IMG/VR virus record: IMGVR_UViG_2728369553_000001
DNA from: a virus
Taxonomy: Duplodnaviria; Heunggongvirae; Uroviricota; Caudoviricetes
Reading direction: 5' to 3' (one strand)
Length of the DNA: 4,409 nucleotides
Shown here: one piece after another, positions 1-4,409 of the stretch
How positions within the stretch are numbered: the first letter of the stretch is position 1
Layout: every line of letters starts with the position of its first letter
Program-made: the position numbers and the translations under genes
The notes under the pieces: generated by a model
Seen by the model: the letters and a program-made list of their open reading frames with translations, nothing else
Databases searched by the model: none
Told to the model about the DNA's origin: nothing

Positions 1-1188
1 CCCCCATCAGCGTCATGATGGATCAGATGGGGATGAACGGGGAGTCGGCAGGTAATGCCCTGCGAAAAGTTATCCAGTCCGGATTAAGTGTTAAGAAAAT
101 CAGGGACGTCAATAAAGTCATGGCCCGCCAGAAACTCGGGATACAGCTCGATTTTACTGACGGCAAAGGAAGTTTTGGCGGTCTTGATAACATGTTCAGG
201 CAACTGGCAAAGTTGCGAAAACTGACCGACGTTAAGCGAACAGGCGTACTTAAGGCAATATTTGGTGATGATGCTGAAACCCTTCAGGTGGTCAATGCTC
301 TGATCGATAAAGGAAAGGATGGTTACGATCAGATCCAGCAGAAGATGAATAAACAGGCCAGCCNNNNNNNNNNNNNNNNNNNNNNNNNNNNNNNNNNNNN
401 NNNNNNNNNNNNNNNNNNNNNNNNNNNNNNNNNNNNNNNNNNNNNNNNNNNNNNNNNNNNNNNNNNNNNNNNNNNNNNNNNNNNNNNNNNNCACGAAGTT
501 TGCGGATGAAAATCCCCGGGTTATTCGCGGCGTCGTCGGGCTTGCTGCCGGTCTTGCGATTCTGAAGCTGGGATTGATGGGCGTGGGCAGTGCCATCAGT
601 ATTGTCAGCAGGATCATGTCGATGACGCCGATTGGCATGATTGCGACGGTGATAGCCCTGGCTGCGGGATTAATTATCACTAACTGGGATGTTGTCGGAC
701 CTTATTTTAAGAAACTCTGGGAAACCATTGGTCCTTATTTTGAGACTGGCTGGGAACTTCTTAAGAAGGTTTTTGCCTGGTCGCCGCTGGGGATGGTGAT
801 CAATAACTGGGGACCGGTTGTTAAGTGGTTTCAGGATATGTGGGACAAGCTGAAGCCAATTATTGAGTGGTTTACCGACAGTTCCGGTGACACGGTCGAT
901 GCCATTAACTCTGCGCAGTGGGGCGCGGGTGCTTATGATGCTTATGGGACGGGAATACCGGCGCGGGGATACACACCTTATCCGGCGGTGGATCCGGCTC
1001 AGGCAAACAACGCCTCCGATGCCACAGGCTCGAATCCCTTCATGATTAACAAAGCTTCTGCGCCAAAAGTCGATGGTGAGATCAAGGTCTCTTTTGTGAA
1101 TTCGCCTCCGGGTATGCGGGTTATGGAAACGCGATCCAGCGGTTTTGATGTCAGCCATGATGTTGGCTATACGCGCTTTGGCAGGTAA
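1..1188 (+). CDS. phage tail tape measure protein, C-terminal portion (5' end lies upstream of the window; interrupted by the N-run at 364-491)
   Basis: Frame 0 is open from the first base of the window (no stop before the ATG at 15), so the gene starts upstream. The pre-gap translation (..GESAGNALRKVIQSGL..LDFTDGKGSFGGLDNMFRQLAKL..) looks like the conserved central region of tape measure proteins. After the gap the open frame (TKFADENPRVIRGVVGLAAGLAILKLGLMGVGSAISIV.., ending YTRFGR, stop TAA 1186-1188) is hydrophobic with regularly spaced Trp/Phe, typical of tape measure C-terminal regions. It sits directly upstream of Mu-like baseplate genes. The post-gap frame is +1 relative to the pre-gap frame given 128 Ns, so continuity as a single gene is inferred, not shown. 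Confidence 0.8.
364..491. other. run of 128 N (assembly gap or masked sequence) inside the tape measure gene
   Basis: Directly visible: 128 consecutive n characters. Content unknown. Confidence 0.99.
697..762 (+). repeat. two tandem imperfect 33-bp direct repeats (11-codon units) within the tape measure gene
   Basis: 697-729 GGACCTTATTTTAAGAAACTCTGGGAAACCATT (GPYFKKLWETI) is followed immediately by 730-762 GGTCCTTATTTTGAGACTGGCTGGGAACTTCTT (GPYFETGWELL), roughly 23 of 33 nt identical by eye. Trp residues recur at about 11-residue spacing through this segment (NW..LW..GW..AW..NW). Confidence 0.5.
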
Positions 1189-1248: not shown

Positions 1249-2571
1249 ATGACGTGGAAAGACAGACTTCAGGACGCGTCATTTCGCGGTGTGCCGTTTA
1301 AGGTTGAAGAAGAAAGTGCGGGAACCGGTCGTCGTGTGGAAACGCACGAATACCCGAACCGCGACAAACCCTATACCGAAGACCTGGGGAAAATCACTTT
1401 CCGCCCGTCCATCACAGCTTATGTGGTGGGAGATGACTGCTTTGACCAGCGCGATCGCCTGATTGACGCGCTGAATAAACCCGGTCCCGGCACGCTTGTC
1501 CATCCGACATACGGTGAGCTGAAAGTCTGTGTTGACGGGGAAGTTCGGGTCAGCACATCGAAGAATGAAGGGCGTATTGTCCGCTTTGACCTGAAGTTTG
1601 TCGAAGCGGGAGAACTCTCTTACCCCACATCAGGTACGGCGACGGCGCAGACGCTGATGTCATCCTGTTCTGCACTGGATGACTGCATCCGTGACAGTTT
1701 CAGAGGTTTCAGTATCGATGGCGTGGCGGATTTTGTGCAGAACGACGTCGTCGGTAATGCCAGCACAATGCTGGGGTATGTTTCTGATGCGATGAAAGTG
1801 GTGGATTCTGCCGTATCGGATGCCGCCAGGCTGTTGCAGGGGGATATCTCGGTANNNNNNNNNNNNNNNNNNNNNNNNNNNNNNNNNNNNNNNNNNNNNN
1901 NNNNNNNNNNNNNNNNNNNNNNNNNNNNNNNNNNNNNNNNNNNNNNNNNNNNNNNNNNNNNNNNNNNCGGTGTCAGCCTTGGCAGCGATCTGCAACCGCG
2001 CGGCGTCTGGAAAACGGACAGTAAAACCACCGCCACGGCGACACAGCAGCGTAACGTGGTTGCCAGCATCCTTCGTACGACCGCAATCAGCGAAGTGGCG
2101 TATGCCGTCACCCGATTGCCTGCGCCAACAACTTCCGCGGTGATGCAGAATGCCGCAGTGGGGCAGGCAACAACACCCGCGCAGAGCACTGGCTGGCCTT
2201 CCGTCACGCATCCGGCACTGAACAATGCACCGGCGGTGAAAAGCACGGTTGACCTGCCAACGTGGGAAGAACTGACTGACATTCGCGACACACTGAATAC
2301 GGCAATTGATAAGGAGTTGTCCCGTACAACCAGTGATGCGCTGTTTCTGGCGCTGCGCCGGGTGAAAGCAGATCTGAATGCGGATATCAACACGCGCCTT
2401 GAACAGTCTGCACGGATCATTCAGCGCACGCCGGATGAGGTTTTACCCGCGCTGGTGCTGGCGGCGACCTGGTTTGATAACGCGGCGCGTGACGGGGACA
2501 TTATCCGGCGTAATGCCATTACGCATCCCGGCTTTGTGCCGGTGATCCCTCTGAAGGTGCCAGTGCAATGA
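1249..2571 (+). CDS. DNA circularization protein, phage Mu gpN (gp43)-like
   Basis: Long ORF with N-terminus MTWKDRLQDASFRGVPFKVEEESAGTGRRVETHEYPNRDKPYTEDLGKITF.., which matches my recollection of the conserved N-terminal domain of Mu N-type proteins. It lies between a tape measure gene and a Mu P-like gene, as in Mu. Start chosen at ATG 1249 (GGAG at 1241-1244 upstream, and downstream of the hairpin); in-frame ATGs at 1207 and 1234 are alternatives. Stop TGA 2569-2571 overlaps the next start. The frame is preserved across the N-run at 1855-1967. Confidence 0.85.
   Translation: MTWKDRLQDASFRGVPFKVEEESAGTGRRVETHEYPNRDKPYTEDLGKITFRPSITAYVVGDDCFDQRDRLIDALNKPGPGTLVHPTYGELKVCVDGEVRVSTSKNEGRIVRFDLKFVEAGELSYPTSGTATAQTLMSSCSALDDCIRDSFRGFSIDGVADFVQNDVVGNASTMLGYVSDAMKVVDSAVSDAARLLQGDISVXXXXXXXXXXXXXXXXXXXXXXXXXXXXXXXXXXXXXXGVSLGSDLQPRGVWKTDSKTTATATQQRNVVASILRTTAISEVAYAVTRLPAPTTSAVMQNAAVGQATTPAQSTGWPSVTHPALNNAPAVKSTVDLPTWEELTDIRDTLNTAIDKELSRTTSDALFLALRRVKADLNADINTRLEQSARIIQRTPDEVLPALVLAATWFDNAARDGDIIRRNAITHPGFVPVIPLKVPVQ
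1855..1967. other. run of 113 N (assembly gap or masked sequence) inside the gpN-like gene
   Basis: Directly visible: 113 consecutive n characters. The flanking reading frame of the 1207/1249..2571 ORF is continuous across it as written. Confidence 0.99.
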
Positions 2572-3648
2572 ACGATAACGTCACGCTACGGGTAAATGGC
2601 CGGGAGTGGAATGGCTGGACATCGGTGCGCATCGGTGCCGGTGTTGAACGACTGGCGCGGGATTTCAGTGTGGAGATCACTCGCCAGTGGCCGGGAGATG
2701 AGGGTATCACCACGCTTCAGCCGCGCATTAAAAACGGTTCAAAAGTGGAAGTGCTGATTGGTGATGAGCTGGTGATCACCGGCTGGGTGGAGGCGACGCC
2801 CGTTCGTTACGATGCCCGTTCGGTCAGCACCGGTATTGCCGGACGTAGTCTGACCGCTGACCTGATTGACTGTGCAGCCGAACCGACACAGTTTAACGGA
2901 CGCTCGCTGGTGCAGATTGCGCAGGCGCTTGCTGCGCCTTTCGGCATTGAGGTGGTGAACAGCGGTGCGCCGTCGGGTGTTATTCCTGATGTTCAGCCTG
3001 ATCACGGTGAAACGGTGATTGAGGTAATCAACAAAATACTCGGTCAGCAGCAGGCGCTGGCTTACGACGACCCGCACGGCAGGCTGGTGATTGGCGGTAT
3101 TGGCTCAACGCGGGCACATACCGCGCTGGTACTTGGGGAAAACATCCTTTCCTGTGATACGGAGAAGAGTATCCGGGAGCGGTTTTCTGTTTACCAGGTG
3201 GCGGGGCAGCGTGCCGGAAACGACGATGATTTCGGTGAGGCCACCACCACCGCGCTGCGGGCCCGCACAGAGGACGCATTTATTGCCCGTTACCGTCCGA
3301 TGTATATCAGGCAGACAGGGCAGGCCACGGGGGCAGGTTGTATTGCGCGTGCTGACTTTGAAGCCCGACAACGGGCGGCGCGGACGGATGAAACCACCTA
3401 TGTGGTGCAGGGCTGGCGACAGGGTAACGGTACGCTGTGGCAGCCCAACCAGCGGGGTGATTGTCTTCGATCCGGTCTGTGGTTTCGACAATACCGAACT
3501 GCTTGTCTCGGAAGTCACGTTTACTCAGGACCAGAACGGCACCCTGACGGAAATCCGTGTCGGCCCACCTGATGCTTATCTGCCTGAACCCGAAGCCCCC
3601 GGCGCGCGGAAAAAGAAAAAAGCCAGAGTACAGGAGGACCCGTTCTGA
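2568..3648 (+). CDS. Mu gp44 (P)-like baseplate hub protein; reading frame broken by one extra base in a GGGG run at 3454-3457 (pseudogene or homopolymer sequencing error)
   Basis: ATG 2568 overlaps the upstream stop (ATGA), with an AAGGTG Shine-Dalgarno-like motif at 2554-2559. Frame 0 reads MNDNVTLRVNGREWNGWTSVRIGAGVERLARDF.. through ..YVVQGWRQGNGTLWQPNQR, then runs into a non-conserved-looking tail (GDCLRSGLWFRQYRT..) and stops at 3572. The +1 frame from 3457 reads VIVFDPVCGFDNTELLVSEVTFTQDQNGTLTEIRVGPP.. and ends with TGA 3646-3648, precisely overlapping the gp45-like start. Removing one G from 3454-3457 joins the two frames as ..QPNQRVIVFDP... Confidence 0.8.
3633..3638 (+). promoter_or_regulatory. 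Shine-Dalgarno sequence (AGGAGG) for the gp45-like gene
   Basis: AGGAGG lies 9 nt upstream of ATG 3648. Confidence 0.6.
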
Positions 3649-4196
3649 TGAGGACGATTGAAGCCATGCAGCGACAACTTCTCGGCCTGATTGGGCGGGC
3701 AGTGGTGAAAAGCATCAGTGCCGCCACGAAATGTCAGACCGTGGATGTGTCCCTGATTGCCGGTGAACCCAAAGCCGGGGTTGAACATCTTGAACCCTAC
3801 GGTTTTACCGCAAGGGCAAACAGCGGTGCGGAAGCGGTGGTGTTGTTTCCGGATGGCGACCGTTCTCATGCGGTGGTTGTTACGGTGTCGGACCGGCGCT
3901 ACCGCCTGAAAGGGCTGCAGACGGGTGAGGTGGCTGTCTATGACGATCAGGGGCAGTCTGTGACGCTGACCCGGGAGGGGATCGTGGTGGACGGTGCAGG
4001 TAAAACGATCACGTTTCGCAATGCGCCCAGAGCACGTTTTGAAATGGACCTGGAAGTGACCGGACAGGTGAAAGACCTGTGCGACTCCGGCGGTACCACC
4101 ATGTCAGCGATGCGGCTTGCCTATAACGGGCATCGTCACAGAGAGAACGGTCAGGGCAGTAACACCGACAAACCTGATAAAGCGATGGAGGCATGA
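3648..4196 (+). CDS. phage baseplate assembly protein V / Mu gp45-like central spike protein
   Basis: 182-aa ORF with a strong Shine-Dalgarno site. The translation (MRTIEAMQRQLLGLIGRAVVKSISAA..VDVSLIAGEPKAGVEHLEPYGFTARANSGAEAVVLFPDGDRSHAVVV..GIVVDGAGKTITF..CDSGGTTMSAMRLAYNGHRHRENG) resembles P2 gpV / Mu gp45 type spike proteins. It sits in the expected position after the hub gene. Stop TGA 4194-4196 overlaps the next gene's start. Confidence 0.85.
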   Translation: MRTIEAMQRQLLGLIGRAVVKSISAATKCQTVDVSLIAGEPKAGVEHLEPYGFTARANSGAEAVVLFPDGDRSHAVVVTVSDRRYRLKGLQTGEVAVYDDQGQSVTLTREGIVVDGAGKTITFRNAPRARFEMDLEVTGQVKDLCDSGGTTMSAMRLAYNGHRHRENGQGSNTDKPDKAMEA

Positions 4197-4409
4197 TGGA
4201 ACTGTGGCTGACGGTGAACGGTAAACGCACCTGCGCCAGCGCACCGCTGGATCCGCTGACCCGCGCCGTGGTGATTTCCCTGTTTACCTGGCGGCGGGCG
4301 GAGCCTGATGACAACGCCGATGTCCCGATGGGATGGTGGGGGGATACCTGGCCTGCGGTACAGAATGACCGTTACGGCTCCCGACTGTGGCTGCTTCAGC
4401 GCAGCAAAC
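4196..4409 (+). CDS. phage GP46 family baseplate protein (Mu gp46-like), 3' end outside the window
   Basis: Open frame from tandem ATGs at 4193 and 4196 to the window end with no stop: MMELWLTVNGKRTCASAPLDPLTRAVVISLFTWRRAEPDDNADVPMGWWGDTWPAVQNDRYGSRLWLLQRSK. This matches my recollection of the GP46 family N-terminal region (..ISLFT..RA..DD....GWWGD..). GGAGG at 4187-4191 is 4 nt upstream of ATG 4196, so 4196 is favoured over 4193. This ORF is absent from the supplied ORF track, presumably because it has no stop in the window. Confidence 0.75.
   Translation, partial: MELWLTVNGKRTCASAPLDPLTRAVVISLFTWRRAEPDDNADVPMGWWGDTWPAVQNDRYGSRLWLLQRSK

Follow-up and report, generated by a model that had tools for sequence, protein, structure and literature searches.

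A one-base frameshift in the baseplate hub gene of a probable SfV/e14-type prophage of Escherichia coli

The window, by which we mean the whole 4,409-base stretch of DNA analysed here, is filled with co-oriented phage tail genes, one of which, a baseplate hub gene of the Mu gp44/gpP type, changes reading frame at a run of four G residues. The question raised by this locus is whether the extra G is a true mutation carried by a prophage or a mistake introduced into a draft sequence that also contains two runs of N. The initial annotation had left the choice between genuine inactivation and a homopolymer indel error undecided. The features of the window are as follows (ECONIH5 is the complete E. 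coli genome NZ_CP026202.1; PGAP names are those given at the corresponding positions).

1..1188, + strand: 3' part of the tape measure gene; an N run lies at 364-491, and the rest matches ECONIH5 C2U48_RS02980 ('phage tail tape measure protein') at 100% identity
1209..1238, + strand: terminator-like hairpin (9-pair stem, then a run of T) that separates the tape measure and DNA-circularization genes
1249..2571, + strand: gene annotated by name as DNA circularization protein (Pfam DNA_circ_N, E=7.8e-35; PGAP CDS in ECONIH5), with an N run at 1855-1967
2568..3455, + strand: first 296 native residues, in frame 0, of the Mu gp44/gpP-like baseplate hub pseudogene (Pfam GpP-like_1st, Gp44-like_2nd, NMB1110_3rd and the first half of GpP_4th)
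3454..3457, + strand: GGGG run with one inserted G; the 12 phage records all have GGG, as do about 1,045 further complete E. coli genomes
3456..3572, + strand: out-of-frame tail of 38 unrelated codons and a TGA stop; the same DNA is read in the other frame in every relative
3457..3648, + strand: displaced native hub C-terminus in the +1 frame, 63 codons and a stop (GpP_4th profile positions 47-87; 63/63 identical to the SfII hub C-terminus)
3648..4196, + strand: intact Mu gp45-like baseplate assembly protein V (spike) gene (Pfam Phage_Mu_Gp45, E=1.5e-24; PGAP WP_001259084.1)
4196..4409, + strand: start of a GP46-family baseplate gene, cut by the window edge (ECONIH5 counterpart: PGAP WP_000424732.1, 'phage GP46 family protein')

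This order of tape measure, DNA circularization, hub, gp45-like and gp46-like genes is shared with the Sf phages, and the window very probably represents the tail and baseplate genes of an E. coli prophage, a temperate myovirus of the SfV/SfII/SfI/e14 type. The DNA circularization gene occupies a position which we take to be that of Mu gpN/gp43. The hairpin at 1209-1238 sits inside an apparent single late operon, and a 'putative rho-independent terminator' is annotated at the equivalent site of the SfII record.

Re-reading of the sequence established that the GGGG run at 3454-3457 does split the hub gene, at the coordinates first given for it. Frame 0 follows the hub up to ...LWQPNQR, through position 3455; the ORF (2568-3572) codes for 334 amino acids, of which the first 296 are hub residues and the last 38, starting GDCLRSGLWFRQ..., are unrelated to it, the non-hub tail ending as described in a premature stop at 3570-3572. 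The hub continues in the +1 frame from 3457, where it reads VIVFDPVCGFDNTELLVSEVTF..., and terminates at 3646-3648 within a TGATG shared with the start of the next gene. Removal of one G restores, as had been proposed, a single ORF of 1080 nt (359 codons and a stop). The open part of the +1 frame spans 3091-3648, and the codons at the shift site are CAG CGG GGU GAU. The frameshift is a direct fact of the sequence, to which a chance estimate does not apply.

The suggestion that homology switches frame at this point was upheld by a profile comparison, in which Pfam GpP_4th (PF21929, 87 positions) spans both frames: frame-0 residues 259-294 match profile positions 6-42 and the +1 piece matches positions 47-87. 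The orthologous locus gives the same answer, as relatives read the DNA of the out-of-frame tail in the other frame and carry GGG within a single 359-codon ORF. The repaired product is identical to the hub of phage SfII (YP_008318496.1) at 358 of 359 residues, the one difference being A120P, and all 63 codons of the +1 frame agree with SfII at the protein level. A single residue (V26I) likewise separates the repaired product from WP_000999510.1, the intact E. coli allele.

The assignment of the gene to the Mu gp44/P-like hubs also stood. The window hub carries the Pfam domains GpP-like_1st (5e-23), Gp44-like_2nd (6e-27) and GpP_4th, and the domain models of the hub family scored 93.8, 81.1 and 29.5 bits, above the cut-off of 27, with the third domain below it at 20.5 bits; the +1 piece reached 25 bits over GpP_4th positions 47-87. 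When repaired, the protein aligns with Mu gp44 (PDB 1WRU/9KI1) over residues 1-348 (E=2.6e-50) and with the 43-kDa tail protein of MuSo2 (PDB 3CDD) over residues 3-337 (E=5.4e-52). The displaced C-terminal piece aligns up to residue 344 of chain 3CDD and residue 348 of chain 1WRU, and therefore corresponds to part of those solved chains. Both proteins belong to the family of the window hub and share its Pfam domains but are distant from it in sequence. Mu gp44 folds like T4 gp27 and forms, as a trimer, the centrepiece of the baseplate (PMC3004832). Compared with it, the window hub is broken at the equivalent of about residue 297, and the last ~50 aligned residues are out of frame.

The gene order is that of the family, the hub gene lying between the DNA-circularization gene and the gp45-like spike gene. 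The domains, however, do not share a single uninterrupted frame, owing to the +1 G insertion at 3454-3457. Judged by its sequence, the window hub is thus a pseudogene of the Mu gp44/gpP family rather than a functional member. Among the proteins of the hub cluster, several have 363 rather than 359 amino acids (for example WP_223571428.1 and WP_005134763.1), so that some copies in E. coli and Shigella may have a different start or a variant C-terminus.

The closest relatives of the locus are unshifted. Hub genes of SfII, SfI, SfIV and SfV, together with that coding for WP_000999510.1, are 97.6-99.4% identical to the window at the DNA level. All of these hubs have GGG and a single 359-codon ORF, whereas the window has GGGG. 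The set of 12 phage records comprising SfII, SfI, SfIV, SfV and E. coli relatives is 97.6-98.5% identical to the window, and every one of the 12 carries the unshifted 1082-nt form; the equivalent DNA of SfI is 98.2% identical and likewise unshifted. Phage SfI is inducible and has been purified as a contractile-tailed particle, its morphogenesis genes are 97% identical to those of e14-type prophages, and the Sf phages with an unshifted hub are viable (PMC3636060).

The gene is also common in the host species, being found at 95% identity or more in about 1,090 of 5,426 complete E. coli genomes. The only genome among these 5,426 to match at 100% with a length of 1083 nt was ECONIH5. A 32-nt probe centred on GGGG, which cannot seed on the GGG allele, again matched one genome of the 5,426, the same ECONIH5, while a 76-nt probe placed the site in about 1,046 complete E. 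coli genomes. No exact match to a 35-nt string containing GGGG was found in the GTDB species representatives or in the JGI metagenome contigs. On this distribution the GGGG allele is both derived and rare.

If the extra G were a homopolymer sequencing or assembly error, the true genome would have GGG and an intact hub. The state of the window offers this explanation some support, as it is a gapped draft in which N runs of 128 and 113 stand for 154 and 119 real bases in gap-free relatives; the runs at 364-491 and 1855-1967 are size-estimated scaffold gaps and not length-preserving masks. The bases hidden by both runs are, in the gap-free relatives, ordinary coding sequence with no obvious repeat. 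The initial annotation took these gaps as making an assembly error plausible, which was not borne out, the same GGGG being present in ECONIH5 (NZ_CP026202.1), a complete genome that is free of gaps and 100% identical to the three non-N blocks of the window. Its locus C2U48_RS02970 (544976-546056), described by PGAP as 'phage baseplate assembly protein, frameshifted', is the same allele without any sequence difference, in a gap-free context as opposed to the gapped draft of the window.

The insertion is not confined to these two sequences. An exact-protein look-up found the 334-aa truncated product on record on 7 or 8 contigs, and GGGG was present in all six loci that were read (SRR6490560, ERR13265974, SRR28073261, ERZ28583718, ERR11457668 and SRR6515290), which come from isolate and metagenome runs of different projects, ERZ28583718 being a metagenome scaffold. 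Identity between the carriers is 99.9% or more over the whole window, and three of the six contigs have one private SNP each relative to it, at 4187, 3976 and 912. Two contigs, one of them from SRR6490560 (L004) and the other designated L005, show ~100 substitutions against ECONIH5, concentrated in a block of ~2.5 kb with head-tail connector genes, and 22 substitutions against each other. The block lies at about 2000-4500 of L004 and L005, upstream of the window, and their whole tail module is identical to that of ECONIH5. The pattern is that of a recombination mosaic, both versions of which carry the GGGG frameshift, and the insertion is thus present on at least three prophage haplotypes.

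The assemblies were judged independent by their separate accessions and flanking haplotypes and by their private SNPs. Two possible sources of non-independence were considered and rejected. The first was that the window is a masked copy of ECONIH5; the lengths of its N runs (128 and 113 in place of 154 and 119) speak against this, though every non-N base is identical, and the window is a gapped draft of the same prophage, probably from another assembly or isolate. The second was that SRR6490560 is the read set of ECONIH5, from which its contig differs by more than 120 substitutions.

An inherited mutation, and not a homopolymer error, is what one would expect to meet both in a complete genome free of gaps and in assemblies made independently, on three or more haplotypes that SNPs or a recombined block set apart. 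A run of four bases is in addition short for systematic errors of this kind. We therefore consider an error to be very improbable. Of the two outcomes first proposed, it is genuine inactivation that is favoured, the GGGG being common to ECONIH5 and six other contigs, and the suspicion of a homopolymer error that falls away. Agreement between independent assemblies thus indicates that the extra G is real and has been passed on in one prophage lineage.

A separate one-nucleotide loss in the same hub gene was observed in E. coli 23CRST027 (NZ_AP045789.1, 4834518-4835596), where GGGG has become GGG at the window equivalent of 3132-3135 and PGAP again flags the gene as 'frameshifted'. Short G runs may be recurrent sites of pseudogenisation in the hub, unless the deletion is a platform error in that assembly; a platform error there could count in favour of an error in the window also.

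A genuine insertion need not abolish the protein if the ribosome or the RNA polymerase corrects it. An efficient or programmed +1 recoding event at CGG-GGU, by ribosomal frameshifting or transcriptional slippage, would restore the full-length hub, and since the +1 frame is open from well upstream, a change of frame near 3454-3457 would be enough to produce the native protein. As a rare arginine codon in E. coli, CGG might also allow some spontaneous shifting at a low level. However, programmed shifts are conserved, and the shifted form is found in 1 of about 1,046 E. coli genomes and in 0 of 12 phages, with a single ORF in all the others. Inspection of the shift-site codons against motifs from the literature revealed neither a known +1 slippery motif nor a stimulator. 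Known cases of transcriptional slippage need a run longer than four Gs, and the site has no prfB-type +1 motif (CUU UGA). Recoding is the least credible of the explanations that we weighed.

A phase-variable homopolymer switch was likewise rejected, as the tract is never long, having only three or four Gs. All carriers of this haplotype have four Gs and essentially all other genomes have three, which excludes phase variation.

The truncated product could also have been kept for a function of its own. The 334-aa hub might poison the baseplates of superinfecting phages of the SfV/e14 type, or it might act as one half of a split protein together with a separately made C-terminal piece. The allele occurs on several haplotypes, including ones with a recombined connector block, and the first three hub domains are intact; ATG codons at 3388 and 3400 in the +1 frame could in principle start a C-terminal fragment. 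No convincing ribosome-binding site was found by inspection before these two ATGs, however, and the break falls in the middle of a domain (GpP_4th). There is no sequence sign of selection: with carriers so nearly identical across the window (99.9% or more), persistence of the allele is equally expected of a recent neutral mutation. The general decay of the prophage in ECONIH5 also argues against a retained function, which we hold to be highly unlikely. Its more specific form, a domesticated decoy in which the 334-aa product co-assembles with and poisons SfV/SfII/e14-type baseplates and so provides superinfection exclusion, is a little less likely again; if true, it would explain the presence of the allele on several recombinant prophage backgrounds.

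Neutral decay of the hub gene is in keeping with the state of the element that carries it, as known from the ECONIH5 copy. In that genome the hub is part of a ~37-kb prophage inserted at icd, the site of e14, with genes for terminase, portal, protease, capsid, connector, sheath, tube and baseplate. Its integrase lacks the C-terminus, an ISEc33 element is inserted in the lysis cassette between the lysozyme gene and an Rz-like lysis gene, mcrA contains an internal stop and another small ORF is frameshifted. The hub is present in a single copy in the ECONIH5 genome, and therefore no close paralogue is available to complement it.

The alternatives of a defective prophage or a tailocin remnant, both named at the outset, can be separated on this basis. 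The frameshifted hub, the truncated integrase and the ISEc33 insertion in the lysis cassette of the ECONIH5 copy all favour a defective prophage. The idea of a tailocin remnant found no support: in ECONIH5 the tail module directly follows genes for terminase, portal, prohead protease, major capsid and connector, and contigs L004 and L005 show the same set from the portal gene onward. Because head genes are present, the element is to be regarded as a prophage and not as a tailocin.

The relation to e14 of E. coli K-12 extends beyond the shared attachment locus at icd to the related genes named after e14 (ymfQ, tfaE, pinE, mcrA, xisE, ymfL and ymfR). Both elements are cases of prophage decay at icd. 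The e14 element of K-12 is a heavily deleted remnant of ~15 kb; unlike it, the ECONIH5 element, at ~37 kb, is nearly complete and has point lesions. The ECONIH5 region examined (530000-578000, L010) contains a partial duplicated icd fragment at the far end of the prophage, as at the e14 site, and the prophage also has two DNA methyltransferase genes and a DUF6236 gene. A segment beside pinE that carries the C-terminal part of the tail-fibre gene and a fibre-assembly gene lies in opposite orientations in L004 (13962-14672) and L010 (10212-10922), which fits a Pin-invertible fibre switch; such an inversion probably explains why PGAP labels the ECONIH5 fibre gene 'incomplete, missing C-terminus'.

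Taken as a whole, our reading is that the G insertion is real and inherited and inactivates the hub of a decaying SfV/e14-type prophage, and we assign to it a probability of roughly 0.9. The insertion is present in several independent assemblies, is derived and rare, and is accompanied in the ECONIH5 copy by further disabling lesions.

The consequences can be predicted from the position of the break. Addition of one G to a GGG run in the gene for the central baseplate hub would lead ribosomes that begin at the normal start to produce the 296 native residues, then the 38 nonsense residues up to the premature stop, with loss of the second half of the fourth and last hub domain. The truncated hub would most likely be unable to fold or to trimerise correctly, and loss of function is accordingly the most likely outcome for the gene. 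If no working hub is made, assembly of baseplate and tail should fail and no infectious tailed particles would be formed. Translation ending at 3572 would stop 75 nt before the start of the spike gene, so that coupling through TGATG would be lost and expression of the spike may fall. The lesion may be seen as neutral decay; the prophage that carries it, at least the copy in ECONIH5, probably cannot leave the chromosome. Apart from the inserted G, the tail module is identical at the protein level to those of functional relatives; the lesion is therefore recent, and some residual function is possible.

The frameshifted hub was already known, the same allele having been annotated as frameshifted in the RefSeq record of ECONIH5, and point-mutational decay of prophage structural genes is commonplace, this hub being one more example. 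The finding consequently has little importance beyond annotation and makes no open question testable. For curators, it means that the right label for the hub CDS is that of a true frameshifted pseudogene, and that the frame should not be tacitly corrected as if the G were a sequencing error. The insertion also provides a clean and datable lineage marker, one derived indel common to several isolates and metagenomes. For the biology of the host, our analysis suggests that functional tails can probably not be made by the SfV/e14-type prophage that the ECONIH5 lineage carries at icd.
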